From IMG/VR virus record IMGVR_UViG_3300031417_000380: a DNA stretch of 37,953 bases; one strand, 5' to 3'. Both the position numbers and the translations under genes were made by a program. This stretch comes from a virus. The notes beneath the pieces were generated by a model. The model did no database searches and was not told the DNA's origin. It saw only the letters and a program-made list of their open reading frames with translations. Shown here in pieces: positions 8,697 through 37,953 of the stretch; positions within the stretch are counted from its first letter, which is position 1; every line of letters starts with the position of its first letter.

Positions 8697-9818
8697 GTGG
8701 GAGACTTCAACATCGCCTGCGGGCTGAGTAACCTGGAAATCCAAGAGGACGACCGTGTCGGGGTGGTTATCCTAGATCATATAGAGGCACATAACTACTC
8801 TGACTACGGTTATTCCGCCGCAAAGCTCTTTGATACAGAACCAACCAAGAATTATCGGCCGCATCTACCGGCGGTCTACGCGCACTACAACGGCTCCGGC
8901 GGGTTCCGCGATGTCGAAGAATCGGGAGTTACACGCTATCTTGAAGAGTATCTTAAGAAGCCGATTCTCGATGTGCTCAACGCGATCGGCGACAGACGCA
9001 AGCTTTACGATGAACACTCTAAAGTCGGCAACCTTTACCTCGAGCCACGGCTTCGAAAGGTGCTTAGAAATAACAAGCTAACTGTCGAGCAAAAGCTTGT
9101 TTCTTTTGGCTTTGCGAAGGTCAATCCGAAGCTCGATGAGCTGAAAGCGTACAGTCACAAGTCGATTCGTCTTGCTCTTCTGGATAGCAACGGCGACAGA
9201 CAACTTTGGCGTGCATCCGAAGGCTCTGATCTGCGCTTCGAGCGGAGCTTCCACGGTGATGCGGCCGACATACTCTCAATATTAAGCTCGACGAGTTACT
9301 GCGCTCCCGGATTCGCAGATCCTGCGCTAGCGCTTACAGTACGACGGTTCAGTGGTATGACTTTCCTACCAGAGGTACTGGACTCTGTTTCTGATCTAGT
9401 AGAGAGCCAGCGCTACTATAGCGACCGGCTTAACTTGCTTACTGAAGAGCTTGAGAAATTCTTCCTCTTCGAGTTATCGCCGGAGTTCTTATCTGCGGTC
9501 CGAAATCTGAACGATCAGGGACCTCAAGCCGTTGCGAGACTCTATCTACAGCACGCTCGTAGTGACTATGTGGAGTCTGAGCTCATAGTTCCTCGTCAGC
9601 AGCTCGAAAGCTTCCGAAGTCTTCTGACAGCCGAAGAAGTGCTATCTCTCAAAAAGCTCGAGTTCGCGCTCTTCGCTCTCAATCGGCGATTTGAGCCGAC
9701 TATGGTGGCTGAAGAAAATAACTCTGATCGGGCAACACTTGTGCTAAACAAAGCCGTGGATGCGATTATCCGTCAAAGGATGTATGATCGTGACGAAGAC
9801 CCAGATGAAATCTTCTGA
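8697..9818 (+). CDS. hypothetical protein, paralog of 9854-10996
   Basis: N-term MGDFNIACGLSNLEIQEDD and C-term LNRRFEP shared with neighbour. Confidence 0.8.
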   Translation: MGDFNIACGLSNLEIQEDDRVGVVILDHIEAHNYSDYGYSAAKLFDTEPTKNYRPHLPAVYAHYNGSGGFRDVEESGVTRYLEEYLKKPILDVLNAIGDRRKLYDEHSKVGNLYLEPRLRKVLRNNKLTVEQKLVSFGFAKVNPKLDELKAYSHKSIRLALLDSNGDRQLWRASEGSDLRFERSFHGDAADILSILSSTSYCAPGFADPALALTVRRFSGMTFLPEVLDSVSDLVESQRYYSDRLNLLTEELEKFFLFELSPEFLSAVRNLNDQGPQAVARLYLQHARSDYVESELIVPRQQLESFRSLLTAEEVLSLKKLEFALFALNRRFEPTMVAEENNSDRATLVLNKAVDAIIRQRMYDRDEDPDEIF

Positions 9819-9853
9819 AATACTTCACCAGGACCACTAACGTAGGGAAAAGC

Positions 9854-19328: not shown

Positions 19329-20180
19329 TTACTCGGACTTCGTAACGCCTGTCGGGTCAACAACTCCTGCTGGGAGAGGCTGATCTACCGGGCACCAGTA
19401 GAGCATACGGCCGTAGAAGTCCTTGGCTCGCACCGGACCTCCACAGATCACGCACGGCTGTGTCGCACGCTTGTAAACGTAGGTACGCCGAGCACACGCA
19501 GCTTTAATCACCGGAGGGAGTCCGAGCGGCTTCGGCGCACCGGAGTAAACTGTCTCAATCCCGCCGGAGTGCTCTACTCCGTGGCTCATGAGCTCGTGAG
19601 TGAGTGCCCAAAGCTTCTTCCACTCCTCGGTTGAAAGATCTTTGGCGGGCTTGAACGGGGATAGCCCACGCATGAAGAGCACCTCTGCTCGGTAAACGTT
19701 ACCGATGCCGGCAATCTCGTTCTGATCCATGAGAATCTTGCCCACCGGAGCTTTTAGCTTCGCCATACGCTCGAGGAAAGCAGCAGGAGCCTCGTCAAGC
19801 TTTAGCGGGTCAGGGCCGAGTCGATCGAGTACCGTCTGAACTCCAGCCTTGTCCAGTACCTCACAGCGCGTCGGACCGTTAAGGTCGATAGTTCGGTTCT
19901 TAAAGCGTACTCGCATTCGGACCGCGCCTTTTGGCTCAGGGGCGGGTGTTGGCAGCTGGTGATGCTTTCCGTAGAGTCCGAGGTGGATGTGGATCGTGTA
20001 ATCCGGCTCGAACTCGAGGAATAGGTGCTTGCCGTGGGACCATGCACCACGGAAACGATGACCATCGACGAGAGCGGCTGATTCTGCGAAGCGACCCTGG
20101 GGAGAGCTTACGTGAGCGATCTGTCCGGCGTTACGATTCCACATATTCGCCGCGCGCTTTAGACTGTGGCCTTCTGGCAT
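19329..20180 (-). CDS. nei: Fpg/Nei family DNA glycosylase/AP lyase (endonuclease VIII-like)
   Basis: N-terminal MPEGH, GKHLF, HLGLYG, H2TH LMDQ..IAGIGNVYRAEVLF, Zn finger CVICG..WCP. Confidence 0.93.
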   Translation of the reverse strand: MPEGHSLKRAANMWNRNAGQIAHVSSPQGRFAESAALVDGHRFRGAWSHGKHLFLEFEPDYTIHIHLGLYGKHHQLPTPAPEPKGAVRMRVRFKNRTIDLNGPTRCEVLDKAGVQTVLDRLGPDPLKLDEAPAAFLERMAKLKAPVGKILMDQNEIAGIGNVYRAEVLFMRGLSPFKPAKDLSTEEWKKLWALTHELMSHGVEHSGGIETVYSGAPKPLGLPPVIKAACARRTYVYKRATQPCVICGGPVRAKDFYGRMLYWCPVDQPLPAGVVDPTGVTKSE

Positions 20181-24122: not shown

Positions 24123-24268
24123 AGAGCCGTAGCTAAAAAAAACTCCTCGAAAAAGTTTTCGCTATAGATGACTAAAAATGTAAAGCGGTGATTGGGCTCG
24201 GTACAAAAGCTATGTCTCGAAAGTAGACACCTGGCGGTGCCGGGTAACTTTCCACAGAAAGATTGACC

Positions 24269-25090
24269 ATGAGTCTCTCAGTTACCGAAATAGCAGTATC
24301 CGAGCTTTCCGAAGTAGAGCTTCTCGACGCAGAAGAGCTTACTCGGAGAAGCAAGCACATCGTTCGCATTCCGAAGCGCGGTAAGTCGCCGGAGTCGCGC
24401 TCCGATGTCTACGGCGGGCTCGTTCGCGCCGCGGTTGACCACGTGGTCGGCGCCGGCGGCCGTGAATCCATGGCTAAGGCGTTCCGCGCCGGCTGCACGC
24501 TCTTCGAGAGCTCCTGCTACATCTGCGGCTACCCGGTCTACCGAAGCACCGGCGATCCGTTCGAGGGTCTCCTCTCGCCGCAGGCTGACCATATCCTCCC
24601 GCACTCCCTCGGAGGCGTCGGAGCCGCCGGTCACCTGCTGCCGACTCACCGTGTCTGCAACGACGCCAAGAGCAACGCACTGGTGGAGGACTACCTCTTC
24701 GACCGCCCCGAGGCTCTGCGTCGTATTAACCGCTTCAAAGAGCTTTACGAGGTGACTGAGATGCCGGGCCTCTACGCCGCTGTGACTGAGCGTGTGGCCA
24801 AGGCGTTCGCCGGCCTCTCCGCCGACCTCACCGAGCTGGGTCTCGACTACGACCTTGAGGTCCCTCCGTTCTACACCGCGAAGCCGAAGACTGAAGATGT
24901 GGCTGAGGAGAAGCCGAAGCTCCCCGCCGCCGTCCTCGCGAAGATGGAAGCCAACGCGCAGGCTACTGAGCGCAAGAAGCTCCTGGCGATCCGCAACCAG
25001 GCTGAGGAGCAGGTACGTCGCTGGCTACGCACCTCCGGGCTACCCGAAGCAAAGAGTATCTACACCTCGGCGAACGGAGTTGCAGCGTGA
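24269..25090 (+). CDS. HNH endonuclease
   Basis: CYICG..ADHILPHSLGG..HLLPTHRVCNDAK; ATG 24269 after AGAAAG. Confidence 0.85.
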   Translation: MSLSVTEIAVSELSEVELLDAEELTRRSKHIVRIPKRGKSPESRSDVYGGLVRAAVDHVVGAGGRESMAKAFRAGCTLFESSCYICGYPVYRSTGDPFEGLLSPQADHILPHSLGGVGAAGHLLPTHRVCNDAKSNALVEDYLFDRPEALRRINRFKELYEVTEMPGLYAAVTERVAKAFAGLSADLTELGLDYDLEVPPFYTAKPKTEDVAEEKPKLPAAVLAKMEANAQATERKKLLAIRNQAEEQVRRWLRTSGLPEAKSIYTSANGVAA

Positions 25091-27348
25091 ACACTCTCGT
25101 AACTGTCCCGCGCATGGAAGGCAACGTCCTCCACTCGAACCCGTTCCACTACGGTCGCCACTTTGTCAACTGGGAGAACCAGCGCACCTCTGCGTGGCCG
25201 CGCACCAAGGCCATCGGTCTGGCTCGAAGCTTTGTGAACGCCTCCGAGACTGAGCAGGGGATGATCTTCGACACGAACTTCATCCTTCAGGAGATCGAGG
25301 ACGACACTAACGGCTTCCACCGCTACGTCTTCTTCGACGGCCAGCAGCGACTCACCACCACCACGCTGGTGGCTCTCGCACTTCTTCGTCTATACCGTGA
25401 CTCTCAGGTAGACACGCAGAACTCCGCCGGCACCGCCGGGTTAAGCCAGCTTTCTGCTGACGCTCTTCTTCGACTGCACCCGGCCACCTCGATCACCGGA
25501 GAGCGCACCGCAGGTGAGCCGTTCACCGGCGGCGCCTACAGCTACGTGGATGAGGAGGGCAAGTTCCGCCCCTGGCTATCCATCAGCCGTGGAGTCAACG
25601 AGGATCACTTTGACGAGTACATCGCTAATCTGGTCTTCACCTCACGAGTCACCCTGATCGAGGATGCTGATCGTTCGCTTCGTGAGGAGCTTCGCTCACC
25701 GGAGGCCCGCCTCGCCAACAACTTCCTCGGTATCCTTGATTATCTGAGTAGCTTACGTCTTGACGACGAGCGCTTCGTTGCCATCGTGAACGCTGTGGCT
25801 GACTTCCGTTGCTACTACAACATCTACCGGGATACTGACGAGGCTACTCGCGCGTTCACCAACTCCAACAACGGAGCCCAGATGAGCTTCGCCGGTGTCA
25901 TGCGCGTCATCGTCGCTGGGATCTACAGCGACAAGGAGCTCACCGAGACTCTCAACAAGCTAGACACTAAGACGATCTACGGCTTCCTTCCAAAGTCGGT
26001 CGCTGAGGTTCAGGATAAGAACGGTTCAGATCTTATCTACCGTTTAGCCTTCTCCTCCACCATGCTCGAGCCGATCCACGCCGGTGACGATAACGCTGCG
26101 GACACGAAGCAGTTCAAGTCGGAGATCCCTACCTCTAAAGATGCGATTCGTTTCTTCAACTCGATCGTCGCGCTCGTTGAGGGTATGCGGTCGCTCGAAT
26201 CAACCGATGTGCGCGGCAAGCGTAAGCCACCCAAGGGAAAACGTCAGACTCGCGAACAACTCTTTGCTCAGTTCCTCTACCTAATCGCTACTCAGGGAAA
26301 TGATCGTTCAGCCTGGTACGCAGCGTTCTATCTACTGCGTAAGCTCGAAAAGGTCGGGCTTCAGCAGCTTCGCGAGGTGCTCGATTCTTTCACTCGCCTC
26401 TACATCAACGTTACGCTATTCGGCTCGGTTGACCCGGCTCGCGAGGATGACAAGAGCTTCTACCGACTGGTACGCTCTACCGTGGAGAAGCTCGGCGTGG
26501 AGAACCTGAATCGAAGCACCCTCGACTCGTACTTCGCTGGCCTCGCCGGGCCGTGGCGCCCGAACACTAAGGCAAAGCTTCGTGCTCACCTTGAGCAGGT
26601 AAGCTTTAAGCCGATCGCTACTAGCGTCTTCGGCCAGCTTTACCCGGCCGCCATGGCCTACGCTGATGTCACTCGTGCTATCCGCTCTAAGCGGGCTATC
26701 CCGGAGCTGCTCTACAACTACCAGCGTTCTTCGTTCACGGTGCCGAGCGCGAACTGCCTCGCTCCGGTGATTGCGATTAACGATGAGCACTCTACGCTCA
26801 TTCGCGCTGGAGGGAGCTTGGAGCTTGCCTACCCCGGTTCGTACCTAGTCACTCACTACAAGCTGGATGTGAACCGCGAGGACTCGCAGAAGATCCGTAA
26901 TCTGCTCGATCGCACCATCGGCGGAACCCGAGTCGGCGATAGCGAGACGCTCATCTCTATTGCTGAAAAGCTAGAGAACTTTAATGACGGCTTCACAAGA
27001 GGCCATGTGGCTCCTGAGTTCGTGGCAGCTAACCGCTCGTGGCAGGCGGCTCGTCTTGCGGACGCCTACGGTATCGATACAGCACCGTTTGAGAAGCTAC
27101 AGAGCCGTCTCTCGCAGCGCTTCCCCTCGGCTACGCAGGTTTACATGGTGGCTGGAGACGACTGCTTCTCCTTCGATCTACGCGCCGGCCGGCTTTCGGT
27201 TGCTGACACTGCGCTCCAGCTTGAGGATTGGGGCGCCGCACTCGAGCTTACCGACTTCAAGACTCAGGAAGAGATGCTCGCGGTTACCAGCATCTTTGTC
27301 GGCGAGAACGAGCACGATGAGAAGCTTGCGGAGGTTCTAGCAGGCTAA
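25087..27348 (+). CDS. DUF262 (GmrS/ParB-like) domain protein, type IV restriction-like
   Basis: NQRTSAW, FDGQQRLTT and AFTNSNNG match the QR..W, DGQQR and FxxxN DUF262 motifs; GTGA coupling to upstream HNH. Confidence 0.8.
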   Translation: MNTLVTVPRMEGNVLHSNPFHYGRHFVNWENQRTSAWPRTKAIGLARSFVNASETEQGMIFDTNFILQEIEDDTNGFHRYVFFDGQQRLTTTTLVALALLRLYRDSQVDTQNSAGTAGLSQLSADALLRLHPATSITGERTAGEPFTGGAYSYVDEEGKFRPWLSISRGVNEDHFDEYIANLVFTSRVTLIEDADRSLREELRSPEARLANNFLGILDYLSSLRLDDERFVAIVNAVADFRCYYNIYRDTDEATRAFTNSNNGAQMSFAGVMRVIVAGIYSDKELTETLNKLDTKTIYGFLPKSVAEVQDKNGSDLIYRLAFSSTMLEPIHAGDDNAADTKQFKSEIPTSKDAIRFFNSIVALVEGMRSLESTDVRGKRKPPKGKRQTREQLFAQFLYLIATQGNDRSAWYAAFYLLRKLEKVGLQQLREVLDSFTRLYINVTLFGSVDPAREDDKSFYRLVRSTVEKLGVENLNRSTLDSYFAGLAGPWRPNTKAKLRAHLEQVSFKPIATSVFGQLYPAAMAYADVTRAIRSKRAIPELLYNYQRSSFTVPSANCLAPVIAINDEHSTLIRAGGSLELAYPGSYLVTHYKLDVNREDSQKIRNLLDRTIGGTRVGDSETLISIAEKLENFNDGFTRGHVAPEFVAANRSWQAARLADAYGIDTAPFEKLQSRLSQRFPSATQVYMVAGDDCFSFDLRAGRLSVADTALQLEDWGAALELTDFKTQEEMLAVTSIFVGENEHDEKLAEVLAG

Positions 27349-27424: not shown

Positions 27425-28276
27425 ATGACATATACTAAAACCACCTCGTCTTCCTGGGATCGCCGCTACGCTGACAGCTTCCATGACCGTAAATCGGCCG
27501 TCTCTCATGCTGACGTCTTCGACAAAGTGTGCTACCTCTGCGGAGCACCTAACACAGGAGACCCAACTGAGCACATCATTCCCGTTTCGTGCGGAGGGCT
27601 TACGGCGCCTGGTAATCTAGCGCGTGCCTGTGATAGCTGCAACTTTGCGAAGCGCACCGATTCAGCTGAGGAGGCGCTCACTAAGCGTCTTAACTCCGGT
27701 GAACCGACTCTCTTCTCTACCGTCGAAGAGCTGCGTGTCTGGCTCGACGCATACATGGCGCCCTATCGTAAAGCTCACGAGGCTCAGTACCGCTTGTCGC
27801 TGATTCTCATGGACGCAGCTCACCCTCGCCGCGAGGCTGCACTAACTAACTGGCATCAGATTCTACTCGACTACCACTTTGATACTGAGTTCCCAGCGGC
27901 TGAGCTGAGCATTTTAGGCGATCTCGTTACGCAGATGCAGTTTAAGATGAACTGGATCAAGATGCGGAGCCAGCAGCGCGAGCAGTACATAACTTCATCT
28001 CGAGGCACCGCGTTGGATCGCCTGAGTAAGGCTGTAGATCCGCTGAGCAAGGCTGTTTACACTAGGGCTTCTTCTCGTTCAGTACGCTCAGACGCACTCA
28101 GCGTTGCGACTCAGGGGGAGCGTGCAGTCGAGTGGTTCAAGGATCATGAAAAGAAGCTGAACATGCTCGAACTGTTTGAGGCTCGCGTAGCTGAACTTGG
28201 GAACTCACAAGGTGCGATTAGTACTTGGCGCTTTGTAGCCCGTGAAGCCGGTCATAAGCTTCCTCGAAAGCACTGA
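27425..28276 (+). CDS. HNH endonuclease
   Basis: CYLCG..EHIIPVSCGG..GNLARACDSCNFAK. Confidence 0.88.
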   Translation: MTYTKTTSSSWDRRYADSFHDRKSAVSHADVFDKVCYLCGAPNTGDPTEHIIPVSCGGLTAPGNLARACDSCNFAKRTDSAEEALTKRLNSGEPTLFSTVEELRVWLDAYMAPYRKAHEAQYRLSLILMDAAHPRREAALTNWHQILLDYHFDTEFPAAELSILGDLVTQMQFKMNWIKMRSQQREQYITSSRGTALDRLSKAVDPLSKAVYTRASSRSVRSDALSVATQGERAVEWFKDHEKKLNMLELFEARVAELGNSQGAISTWRFVAREAGHKLPRKH

Positions 28277-33093: not shown

Positions 33094-33672
33094 GTGACTT
33101 CAAACACAGTAACCGATCCACTCTTCGTTGAGACAGATGAACTCGATGAAGAGTGGATCTACGTGCCTCGGGATGAGCACGCTGATGTGCAGCTTCGTAA
33201 CGGGAAGCTACGACATCACGGTACTGCTAACTACGGCTTCTTGAAGACACTCTGCGCTTGGAAGAGCGAGGTCAAGCGCGAGCTTCACCCAGCCAACATG
33301 GAGCTTCCACTCTGCAAGATTTGCGAAAAGCTTGATGACTTCATTCCTACTCCCGATCAGTTGAAAGCTCGCTTTAGCTGTGACACCTGCGGCGTTGATC
33401 GACGCGCCCTCGGCGAGGCTTATTACAGCGTTCGCCCGAACATTTGGAAGTCGGCTCACCCGGATCATGTCGCGGGAGAGTCACGTAATCTTCAGCCGGA
33501 GGAGTGTGTCGGCTGTTTTGAGAAACGGCTCAGCCGTACTCTTATGAGTAGCGATTTTGCTAAGGCTGTTGGCGGAGTAACTCTCGCTGAAGACATCGCT
33601 AAAAATCCCGACTACTACAGCGACCGGCTAGCCGAGCGCGCCTCCGCTGACTCCTATAGAATGGTAGACTGA
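33094..33672 (+). CDS. Cys-rich putative Zn-binding protein
   Basis: CKIC, CDTCG, YY.V...W, CVGCFEKRL.R.L...DF. Confidence 0.75.
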   Translation: MTSNTVTDPLFVETDELDEEWIYVPRDEHADVQLRNGKLRHHGTANYGFLKTLCAWKSEVKRELHPANMELPLCKICEKLDDFIPTPDQLKARFSCDTCGVDRRALGEAYYSVRPNIWKSAHPDHVAGESRNLQPEECVGCFEKRLSRTLMSSDFAKAVGGVTLAEDIAKNPDYYSDRLAERASADSYRMVD

Positions 33673-33681
33673 AAGCTTATC

Positions 33682-34245
33682 ATGCCTCACATCCACACAG
33701 AAGCCGGGCACCACGATCACACGGTGAGCTTCTTCATCGTTCGTACAGATTTCGATGAGCCAAAGCTCACTTACCACGTCCATCGGAAGACAGGCAACCT
33801 GAGCATGTTCGGCGGTCACGTGGAGCTCGATGAGACTCCGTGGCAAAGCATGCTTCATGAGATCACTGAAGAGTCCGGCTTCGACCACGATCAGCTACAG
33901 ATCCTACAGCCGATTGAGCGTCTTAAGAGTGTCTCCGGCGTGGTGACTCATCCGCAGCCGGTCTACGTTCACACCGGACAATTCCCGATCCAGCCACCTC
34001 ACTATCACACGGACATGATGTACGCGCTGGTGGCTAACGAGGCACCACGTCAGGCGCCGTTAGAGGGTGAGTCCACCGACATCCGATTCTTCACTCTTGA
34101 GGAGCTCGCGCAAGTGGCGGACGAAGAGATCTTCGAAGCGTGGCGTGAGATCGGCGCCTATATTCTCCAAGAGGTGTTCCCTACCTGGGAGCATCTCCCA
34201 CTTTCCACCTTCGATCACACGGGAGCAAATTATGACGCCAGCTGA
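33682..34245 (+). CDS. NUDIX hydrolase
   Basis: Nudix box GGHVELDETPWQSMLHEITEESG (R replaced by H). Confidence 0.9.
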   Translation: MPHIHTEAGHHDHTVSFFIVRTDFDEPKLTYHVHRKTGNLSMFGGHVELDETPWQSMLHEITEESGFDHDQLQILQPIERLKSVSGVVTHPQPVYVHTGQFPIQPPHYHTDMMYALVANEAPRQAPLEGESTDIRFFTLEELAQVADEEIFEAWREIGAYILQEVFPTWEHLPLSTFDHTGANYDAS

Positions 34246-35741: not shown

Positions 35742-35768
35742 AGCTTGAGCTTGTGGTACTATGTACTC

Positions 35769-35915
35769 AAGGCCGGGCAGCGGCCGGTCTTAGGGCTCAC
35801 TCCTACGTGGTGACCCGCTAAGAGCAAGGTTCTAGAAATCCTGTCCATTTTCTCGATTCACCATCTTCGACAGTGGTGATCAAGACGTAGGCGCGATCAC
35901 AGTACTGGACTCAAG
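35769..35915 (+). ncRNA. structured 5' leader RNA, copy 1
   Basis: begins 6 nt after TACTAT (-10); repeated at 37103-37250 with compensatory changes. Confidence 0.7.
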
Positions 35916-37040
35916 ATGACCAAGAATCGCTTCGACAAGCTAGCTATCCGTAACGAGATGGCTCTCACCGGCGCTCCGTACTCCGTAGCAGCACGCTCGG
36001 CAGAGAACTTCCCGCTCACCTCCTGGCTCTCACTCGACACCGCCATCGGCGGCTTCCGACGAGGCCGCTTCTATGCAGTAGGCGCTCAAACTGGAGGCTG
36101 GAAATCAGCCTTTGCTGCGAATCTCGCTGTTAAGTTCGCTCAGGCAAATCGTAAGACGGCTTACTTCTCGCTCGAGGCTACTCAAAGTGAGGTTGCGCTT
36201 CGACTTCTCGGGGCAGCGACAGATGTGTCACTCGCTGATCTAAAGAACGGTGTGGCTAAAAGCTCTCAAGAGCTTGACCATGCTGTCAAGATGCTCGAGC
36301 GTTCAGTTACTGTCAACGATAGCTCTAGACAGAGTGCTGATAGCATCAGAGAGTACGTTGAGAGTCGACCAGAACTTGAAGCCGTCATCATCGACTACGC
36401 TCAGCTTCTTGATTCACCTACCGAGGATATTGTGGCCGGCGTCTCGAGAGCCGAGCTTCTGGCTCGAGCTTCTCGTACTCTAAAGAGCCTAGCTGTAGAG
36501 CTAAACATCCCGGTGATTCTTCTTGTGCAGATGAATCAGAGCGGGGCCAGAGCGCAGTTCCGTGAGACCGGAGCTATTGAGCAGGACGCTGATTGCATCT
36601 TCGTGCTTGACTCCAAGTCAAAGCCTGGAGTTGTCATTCTTAACTTAGTGAAGAATCGTGACGGCGAGCACAAGTCTTTCGAGCTGCTCATTTCGGGCCG
36701 CGGATCGCTTCGGCTTGAGGACAAACTAAAGATCAAGTCACTTACGGCTAATGACTTCACTATGCCGTGGAATGAGACTCTCACATTCCCGTTCTTCGCT
36801 GATGACCAGGGTGATGGTTACTGGGCTCACGGCTCTATTAATGACGATGAGTTTGCTCGTGGGGTGAATCACTACGACGAACTTTGTAACGCCCAGTGGG
36901 ACTACCCGCTTCAAGCTGCTGGAGTAGTCAAGCACATCGGTGTTGGCGCCTACAGCGTTGACCACTCTGATGAGGATTGGCGAATCTACCCGTGCCCGCC
37001 GAACTTCCCCGGTGCTTTCGTGGTGAAGACTCTGGGATAA
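35916..37040 (+). CDS. DnaB-like (SF4) helicase C-terminal ATPase domain protein with extra C-terminal domain
   Basis: LDTAIGGF..GAQTGGWKS (Walker A), YFSLE, VIIDYAQLL (Walker B), LKSLAVELNIPV..Q, ETGAIEQDAD, KNRDG. Confidence 0.88.
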   Translation: MTKNRFDKLAIRNEMALTGAPYSVAARSAENFPLTSWLSLDTAIGGFRRGRFYAVGAQTGGWKSAFAANLAVKFAQANRKTAYFSLEATQSEVALRLLGAATDVSLADLKNGVAKSSQELDHAVKMLERSVTVNDSSRQSADSIREYVESRPELEAVIIDYAQLLDSPTEDIVAGVSRAELLARASRTLKSLAVELNIPVILLVQMNQSGARAQFRETGAIEQDADCIFVLDSKSKPGVVILNLVKNRDGEHKSFELLISGRGSLRLEDKLKIKSLTANDFTMPWNETLTFPFFADDQGDGYWAHGSINDDEFARGVNHYDELCNAQWDYPLQAAGVVKHIGVGAYSVDHSDEDWRIYPCPPNFPGAFVVKTLG

Positions 37041-37102
37041 GCCTACACGCCCGGCCTTGGGAAAGTAGCACACGTTTTAGCGTAACGTGATACTATGGAC
37101 TC

Positions 37103-37250
37103 AAGGCCGGGCAGCGGCCGGTCTTAGGGCCCTCTCCTACGCGGAGTGTTCGCTAAGAGCAAGGTTCTCGGAATCCTGTCGTAACGAACTCGATTCATCA
37201 TCTTAGTAGACGGTGGTTGAGCGTAGGTCGATCACTCGTTGGGATTCAAG
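37103..37250 (+). ncRNA. structured 5' leader RNA, copy 2
   Basis: 32-nt and 18-nt blocks identical to copy 1; same TACTAT-N6 start. Confidence 0.7.
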
Positions 37251-37953
37251 ATGACGAAGAACCGCGCTGAAAAGCACTCCGCTCGCGCTCGCATGGCCAC
37301 CAACTCGGAGCCGTACTCGGTCGCTGCTCGCGCCGTCGCGCCTCTCTCAAGCTGGAGCTCGCTGGACGACGCTCTCAACGGAGGGTTTAAGCCAGGCCAG
37401 GTCTATCTGGTAACGGCTCCCAGCGGAACCCACAAGTCGAGGCTCGCCACGAATCTGATCGCTAAGTTCGCTCTTGGTAAGCACCGAGTGCTCTCGATGG
37501 CCAGCTCGCTTAACTCTTTTGTCTTCAACACCGCTGTTCTGGAGGCTGCCTCCGGCGAGAACTCGTCAAACTGGCGTCTTGAGACCGAGAAGAGCGACCT
37601 CTTCAAGACCATCTTTATCGAGTTGAAGCCGTACATGAGCCACTTTGCCCAGGCTTACTCGGCAGCTGAAATCGACACCTATCTCACTGAAGAGAAGCAC
37701 GATGTGCTGGTCATTAACAGCTTCGAGGATTCTATCGGCGTCTGGCGGCGCGTATCTGCCCGTAACGACACTGATGCTCGTGCACTCAAAGATGTCGCTA
37801 TGAAGCATAACATCCCGGTAATTGTCTTCGCGACCACGCACTACGAGACTTCTGAGCTCGTAAACCCTGTACTCGCTGAGGTGGCTGACACCTCAATCGA
37901 GCTTTCTGCTCGCGATAGAGATAAAGAGCTTATCGTGACGAAGAACCGTAGCA
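37251..37953 (+). CDS. degenerate DnaB-like ATPase paralog, runs off window end (absent from ORF track)
   Basis: manual translation MTKNRAEKHSARARMATNSEPYSVAAR..LDDALNGGFKPG..APSGTHKS..VLVINSF..LKDVAMKHNIPVIV..ADTSI..VTKNR, no stop before window end. Confidence 0.8.
   Translation, partial: MTKNRAEKHSARARMATNSEPYSVAARAVAPLSSWSSLDDALNGGFKPGQVYLVTAPSGTHKSRLATNLIAKFALGKHRVLSMASSLNSFVFNTAVLEAASGENSSNWRLETEKSDLFKTIFIELKPYMSHFAQAYSAAEIDTYLTEEKHDVLVINSFEDSIGVWRRVSARNDTDARALKDVAMKHNIPVIVFATTHYETSELVNPVLAEVADTSIELSARDRDKELIVTKNRS

Follow-up and report, generated by a model that had tools for sequence, protein, structure and literature searches.

The rep leaders of IncI/IncB plasmids, such as that of ColIb-P9 repZ, are switched by a pseudoknot and translationally coupled, and ribosomal-protein leaders such as that of S15/rpsO are autogenous translational operators. 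In the type I toxin genes aapA3/IsoA3 and hok/Sok (plasmid R1), the 5' leader has a complement beyond the stop codon, and its alternative folds can hide the start region (PMC6733600). The 3' element of Helicobacter pylori aapA3 masks the Shine-Dalgarno (SD) sequence in a fold that is shared by the different loci, and the message becomes active when its 3' end is trimmed (PMC6733600). In actinobacteria, genes can end in a GC-rich hairpin within 10 nt of the stop codon, and mycobacterial RNA polymerase does not stop in vitro at hairpins without a U-tract (PMC3993855).

Here we analyze a locus in a 37,953-nt stretch of viral DNA (IMG/VR record IMGVR_UViG_3300031417_000380; this whole stretch is called the window), in which two copies of a cassette of promoter, leader and peptide-bearing gene stand in tandem and are not separated by a U-tailed terminator (Table 1). 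With the toxin genes the locus shares a complement beyond the stop and a leader that can refold and hide the start region, but its arm pairs the first stem of a leader, P1, and not the SD, is absent from all non-tandem homologues and follows a gene for a 374-aa, ATPase-fold, DnaB C-like protein, not a small hydrophobic toxin; no antitoxin RNA was seen. Like actinobacterial gene ends, gene 1 is followed by a GC-rich hairpin within 10 nt of its stop, although here there is no U-tract, two internal loops interrupt the stem and the right arm consists of the promoter and leader of the following cassette. A loop-to-downstream pseudoknot beside a start-occluding stem, and an upstream frame that ends near the control structure, recall repZ, whereas here no antisense RNA was seen, the upstream frame is a full paralogous gene and the leader goes with an N-terminal peptide that unrelated proteins carry. 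With S15/rpsO the locus has in common a structured 5' leader with a pseudoknot, and the protein encoded behind it starts with a basic, possibly RNA-binding segment, but the putative binder here is a portable 30-residue tag on many unrelated domains, with no Rfam, Pfam or NCBIfam match. The preliminary description had presented the locus as a closed-loop mRNA cassette; our analysis corrects that claim and indicates that the hairpin most likely acts as an alternative-structure element on the leader of the next gene.

Table 1. Positions in the window of the features of the tandem locus
Feature	Position	Strand	Remarks
Promoter 1, extended -10	35754..35762	+	TG, then -10 hexamer at 35757-62; probable start ~35769
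Leader RNA, copy 1	35769..35918	+	~150 nt; alignment of 21 leaders; no Rfam match
Leader 1, stem P1	35771-75/35781-85	+	
Leader 1, stem P2	35788-93/35818-23	+	Capped by P3
Leader 1, P3 loop	35802-07	+	Pseudoknot partner of 3' hairpin loop
Leader 1, hairpin P4		+	T-loop-like; invariant
Leader 1, 3' hairpin	Loop 35886-91	+	Loop pairs with P3 loop; base can cover start codon
Gene 1	35916..37040	+	374 aa: peptide, DnaB C-terminal-like ATPase domain, phrog_2495-like C-terminal domain
N-terminal peptide of gene 1	35916..36005	+	30 residues, basic; two helices
Stop-proximal spacer	37041..37048	+	Holds 6-nt candidate pseudoknot competitor; not conserved
Hairpin, left arm	37049..37076	+	Outer stem 37049-61 (holds 11-nt complement), middle 37065-68, inner 37071-76
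Hairpin, right arm	37084..37112	+	Promoter 2 extended -10; 5' strand and loop of leader 2 P1
Promoter 2, extended -10	37088-96	+	Within right arm of hairpin
Leader RNA, copy 2	37103..37253	+	Direct repeat of copy 1
Leader 2, P1	37105-09/37115-19	+	
Leader 2, pseudoknot	37136-41/37222-27	+	
Gene 2	37251..37953	+	Same peptide, degenerate DnaB C-like domain; runs off window

Setting of the element

Syntenic relatives were found on metagenome contigs, the longest of 698 and 828 kb, and two contigs of 674 and 791 kb carry further leaders. The public runs that match best come from phyllosphere, plant and soil metagenomes. The window had no DNA match among GenBank phages, tblastn retrieved generic DnaB helicases only, and none of the cultured phages carries the peptide. 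Pattern and protein scans of IMG/VR returned nothing or chance matches, later peptide scans retrieved a few true loci (L270-L272), and a pattern scan of the genome collection gave no true leader. The element may be a phage or a megaplasmid; 60 proteins gave HNH, NUDIX, Fpg-like and unknown PHROG matches, together with one weak portal match (E 9e-5). A gene with a GmrSD-like N-terminal domain (25087-27348) is flanked by two HNH genes (24263-25090 and 27425-28276), and the window also holds an Fpg/Nei-like glycosylase match (19329-20180) and a NUDIX hydrolase (33682-34245). The ORF 33094-33672 contains, near its start, an 18-bp inverted repeat at 33115-33159 (z about -7).

The leader RNA and its peptide

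In the alignment of 21 leaders, 89% of the cells are paired, compared with 33-47% in slid controls, and 20 of the 36 pairs carry two-sided changes, counts that lean toward the proposed structure because it was drawn partly from the same 21 sequences. The kissing-loop pseudoknot formed by the P3 loop and the loop of the 3' hairpin (6 bp) is 98% paired with four covarying pairs, and the helix over the start codon is weaker (71% paired, little covariation). On this comparative evidence, the leader is a real RNA structure with a covarying kissing-loop pseudoknot. By prediction, the AUG of the gene is mostly paired in the clade of the window, and the structured leader overlaps the initiation region as in an autogenous operator, the start-codon helix being its weaker part.

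Rfam searches gave no match that reached the gathering threshold in the window and none at E<=10 for any leader in eight homologous loci. Readings of the leader as a group I intron, RNase P, tmRNA, Y RNA, T-box or known riboswitch or ribozyme, all of them suggested by motif resemblance, were dropped as they had no Rfam match. Our own model, R1, was built from leaders of the giant elements; leader copy 2 scores 127 bits with it, by construction, and bacterial leaders score poorly and were therefore located by the peptide and anchors. Of 36 peptide genes, 30 have a leader signature upstream, as have 9 of 6843 control windows, with a pattern that was tuned by eye on the same loci. A gap of ~230 nt precedes the leader in L006 and L009 (about 9620-9850) and holds repeated copies of a 16-nt word.

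The peptide is present in 352 protein clusters, where it is fused to many unrelated protein bodies, and was found in 29 of 301 genomes sampled class-wide around a Rhodococcus genome and in 6 of 301 in a Microbacteriaceae sample. Neither Pfam nor NCBIfam holds a family for it. An AlphaFold model, folded from an alignment that leaves out three rows from annotated plasmid records, has helices at residues 3-18 and 22-30 (mean pLDDT 84). It is the co-occurrence of leader and peptide that suggests that the peptide may bind its own leader. On Rhizobium plasmids, the two are also found in front of a gene of the nitrilase family (L227, 2290-2500), which takes the range of the module beyond actinobacteria.

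Several decayed or variant cassettes were observed: L136 (5038-5188, minus strand) has ATT at the start where L191 has ATG, in L197 (7170-7320) the leader is not followed by a peptide gene, and L269 has a stop at codon 15. In many database proteins (of the P0133, P0136, P0137, P0152 and P0159 type), mis-called upstream starts translate leader RNA, so that spurious motifs recur on the N-terminal side of the peptide.

Gene 1 matches PF03796 (E 1e-35) and phrog_2495 (E 4e-12), and the product of gene 2 is 256 aa long in the near-identical strain L275, which matches the window at 98% identity over 36181-37953 and extends past its end. Both DnaB C-like genes have an atypical Walker A motif and no DnaB N-terminal domain; judged from these sequences, the proteins may not be active helicases. 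Over the first 30 codons of gene 1, 1/16, 3/17 and 1/16 four-fold sites differ between the window, L001 and L004, as against 39-50% over the whole gene, which suggests that constraint at the nucleotide level extends into the peptide coding region.

The leader-peptide module is absent from the family libraries and from the literature searched (a search that took in few subscription papers and retrieved no description of leader or peptide), and it is a weightier finding than the hairpin considered below.

A hairpin between the two cassettes

The 11-nt word at 37049-37059 was confirmed to be the exact reverse complement of both 35768-35778 and 37102-37112. With at most one mismatch allowed, the 11-mer has just three matches in the whole window (0.6 expected), and the chance of its lying within 30 nt past the gene 1 stop is ~1e-5, or ~2e-3 if any 11-mer of the leader counts; the complement is exact and chance is ruled out. 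A second word, GCCTAC at 37041-46, is complementary to 35887-92 as had been described, but its supposed role as a competitor of the pseudoknot proved neither significant, its 5-nt core occurring 39 times on the + strand of the window, nor conserved, the word being missing in L001 and L004.

It had also been stated that no terminator hairpin is evident here. There is indeed no U-tailed terminator on the + strand, but a hairpin of 23 bp folds at 37049-37112 (-37.8 kcal/mol, z -5.8), surpassing all 200 shuffles, and the same fold is found in L001 (z -4.0) and L004 (z -4.6). Its duplex runs in three segments with internal loops between them, and its base starts 8 nt past the stop of gene 1 in the window and 7-9 nt past it in the three strains. 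A GC-rich hairpin is thus present near the gene end, as at an intrinsic terminator; no U-tract follows 37112, so the other hallmark of such a terminator is missing. Across the three strains, hairpin cells are 93% paired (95% in the outer stem), four-fold sites of gene 1 differ by ~39-50%, and the changes in the arm preserve pairing through G-U pairs; with three sequences and one two-sided change, which is no excess over shuffles, this conservation does not amount to covariation.

When 52 leaders were compared, the four strongest upstream folds, with z from -7.0 to -4.6, all belonged to the four second copies, and a general rule of an anti-P1 structure upstream of leaders was rejected (median p 0.55). 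The gap between the copies of an independent tandem, L217, holds a strong terminator-like hairpin, pairing to leader 2 there has a probability of only 0.06 in the full transcript, and native P1 survives; the long anti-P1 hairpin therefore belongs to one lineage. It is a lineage-specific addition that makes the leader-peptide module testable.

A -10-like hexamer lies ~6-10 nt ahead of P1 in most leaders inspected, so RNA probably starts near 35769 and 37103; a sigma-70 scan of the window retrieved no site with a -35 match. Judged by the -10 spacing, C35768 probably sits just upstream of the start site, so that a promoter-1 transcript could pair ~10 of the 11 nt. Of the 23 hairpin pairs, 13 use bases 5' of the probable start site 2, the copy-1 counterparts of which are outside the promoter-1 transcript. 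Since mycobacterial RNA polymerase ignores U-less hairpins in vitro (PMC3993855), read-through past the arm would be the default expectation, in a host that may not be a mycobacterium. The sole RNA contig for the locus falls inside gene 2, and a 1362-nt contig between the repeats was rejected as evidence of a circle, being an assembly break at an exact repeat. Near-perfect intergenic hairpins of ~11-20 bp also occur in the window at about 12450, 18791, 19251, 22500, 24074, 28281 and 28861, most of them with no clear U-tract on the + strand; the element may end its transcripts non-canonically, or these hairpins may act on the other strand. Many homologous cassettes likewise end in a gene-end hairpin.

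In predicted folds of whole transcripts through leader 2, the arm pairs leader 2 with a probability of 0.84-1.00 and leader 1 with a probability of 0.00. The native P1 of leader 2 forms with a probability of 0.83-0.96 in RNA from its own start and of 0.00 with the arm present. The arm is complementary to P1, ~140 nt 5' of the start codon, and not to the SD or start region, and no change in access to the gene 2 start codon is predicted with the arm (in a nested model without pseudoknots).

The complement in tandem and single-copy loci

The preliminary description had predicted a like complement past the stop of gene 2 and in homologues. Past gene 2 it is absent from L275, L001 and L004, and the flank of L275 pairs the 5' end of the leader worse than average coding sequence does (-9.4 vs -14.0 kcal/mol). 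It is equally absent after the gene in the single-copy relatives L005, L006 and L276. For 44 non-tandem loci, pairing of the 5' 16 nt of the leader with the 3' flank of the same cassette was at chance (median empirical p 0.51, one locus below 0.1, KS p 0.38), and three further single loci were likewise null, whereas the four first genes of tandems gave p values of 0.01, 0.01, 0.05 and 0.01. Further targeted searches for tandems yielded only single copies or incomplete contigs.

The complement was thus found only where a second leader copy follows. In L005, gene 1 is followed by an intergenic flank that aligns with the flank past gene 2 in L275, L001 and L004, so that the arm and the whole of cassette 2, from its promoter through its leader to its gene, behave as one block that is either present or absent.

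Discussion

We consider it somewhat more probable than its negation that the gene-end hairpin serves to insulate cassette 2 from read-through, the complement belonging to cassette 2 and not to a loop around gene 1. A polymerase coming from promoter 1 would pass the stop of gene 1, and 37049-37112 would fold co-transcriptionally and tie up the 5' strand of stem P1 in leader 2, which in the read-through RNA would be barred from its native fold. Transcripts from promoter 2 do not carry the left arm and would adopt the normal leader fold. On balance, gene 2 would be governed by promoter 2 alone, and a second working leader would be missing from the message of gene 1. That read-through RNA might control the leader of the next copy had been offered as an alternative in the preliminary description, and it is this reading that the folding and co-occurrence data favour. 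The hairpin may also mark, stabilise or allow processing of the 3' terminus of the gene 1 mRNA; stems cut by RNase III have about 20 or more bp of duplex and tolerate internal loops, a length that 23 bp in three segments would suit. Upstream of copy 1, a co-directional gene lies 30 nt away with no such hairpin (z +1.2), so insulation would not be a general need of the leader, and the disabling of P1 may be a by-product, given that U-less gene-end hairpins are common in the window.

Translational coupling, in which a ribosome ending gene 1 would loosen the hairpin, leader 2 would refold and gene 2 would follow the translation of gene 1, seems to us unlikely. A terminating ribosome reaches past the stop codon, the arm begins within 7-9 nt of it in three strains, and the local hairpin is predicted to hold leader 2 off in read-through RNA. 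Such a ribosome, however, would reach only the lowest few of the 23 pairs, gene 2 has a -10 box of its own that is invariant in the window, L001 and L004, and its start codon is unchanged in the predicted folds.

The closed loop proposed for this locus, on the model of hok and aapA, would have the RNA of gene 1 end before leader 2 and the arm pair back to leader 1 and refold it. We regard this as quite improbable. The complement to leader 1 is exact, and in RNA cut 25 nt before P1 of leader 2 the long-range pairing reaches probabilities of 1.00 in the window, 0.78 in L001 and 1.00 in L004; since the arm takes leader 1 only in RNA cut in this way, a closed loop would need 3' ends within about 37060-37083. 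No terminator or other signal for termination was detected there, the local partner wins whenever it is present, the pseudoknot competitor is not conserved, gene 1 is not a small toxin and no antisense RNA was seen. The absence of the complement after gene 2 and in single-copy relatives, together with the null result in 44 loci, shows that the closed loop is not a property of the cassette family, and the proposal fails the sequence-level test that had been set for it.

A purely DNA-level or historical origin, with no role for RNA, is to our minds no less doubtful: the feature would be a fold-back scar of duplication or insertion, the terminal repeats of a mobile unit (35768-37059), or an operator or cruciform of promoter 2. 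The arm does mirror the 5' boundary of cassette 2 exactly and comes and goes with that cassette, and a looser 23-nt inverted repeat (I3) also brackets leader 1 and gene 1. Against this, changes in the arm keep G-U pairing, which fits RNA, and pairing is kept despite a divergence of ~40-50% at four-fold sites; promoter 1 is without the feature. Terminal inverted repeats of a mobile unit were rejected since in L005 gene 1 and its leader stand at the syntenic site with no right repeat.

A switch with two partners, the arm closing on leader 1 when polymerase stops or stalls at promoter 2 and capturing leader 2 upon read-through, is a similarly slim prospect. If it were true, the arm would report where transcription ends, and one short sequence on a giant actinobacterial element would decide between two paralogous copies of an uncatalogued autoregulatory module of leader RNA and peptide.

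Should insulation of cassette 2 be the correct explanation, P1 would be needed for the activity of the leader, and messages with two native leaders would be selected against. The tandem locus would then also permit a direct test of the model in which the peptide binds its leader, as it provides a natural handle on the module, namely a conserved element in cis that takes away the first stem of the leader and nothing else.
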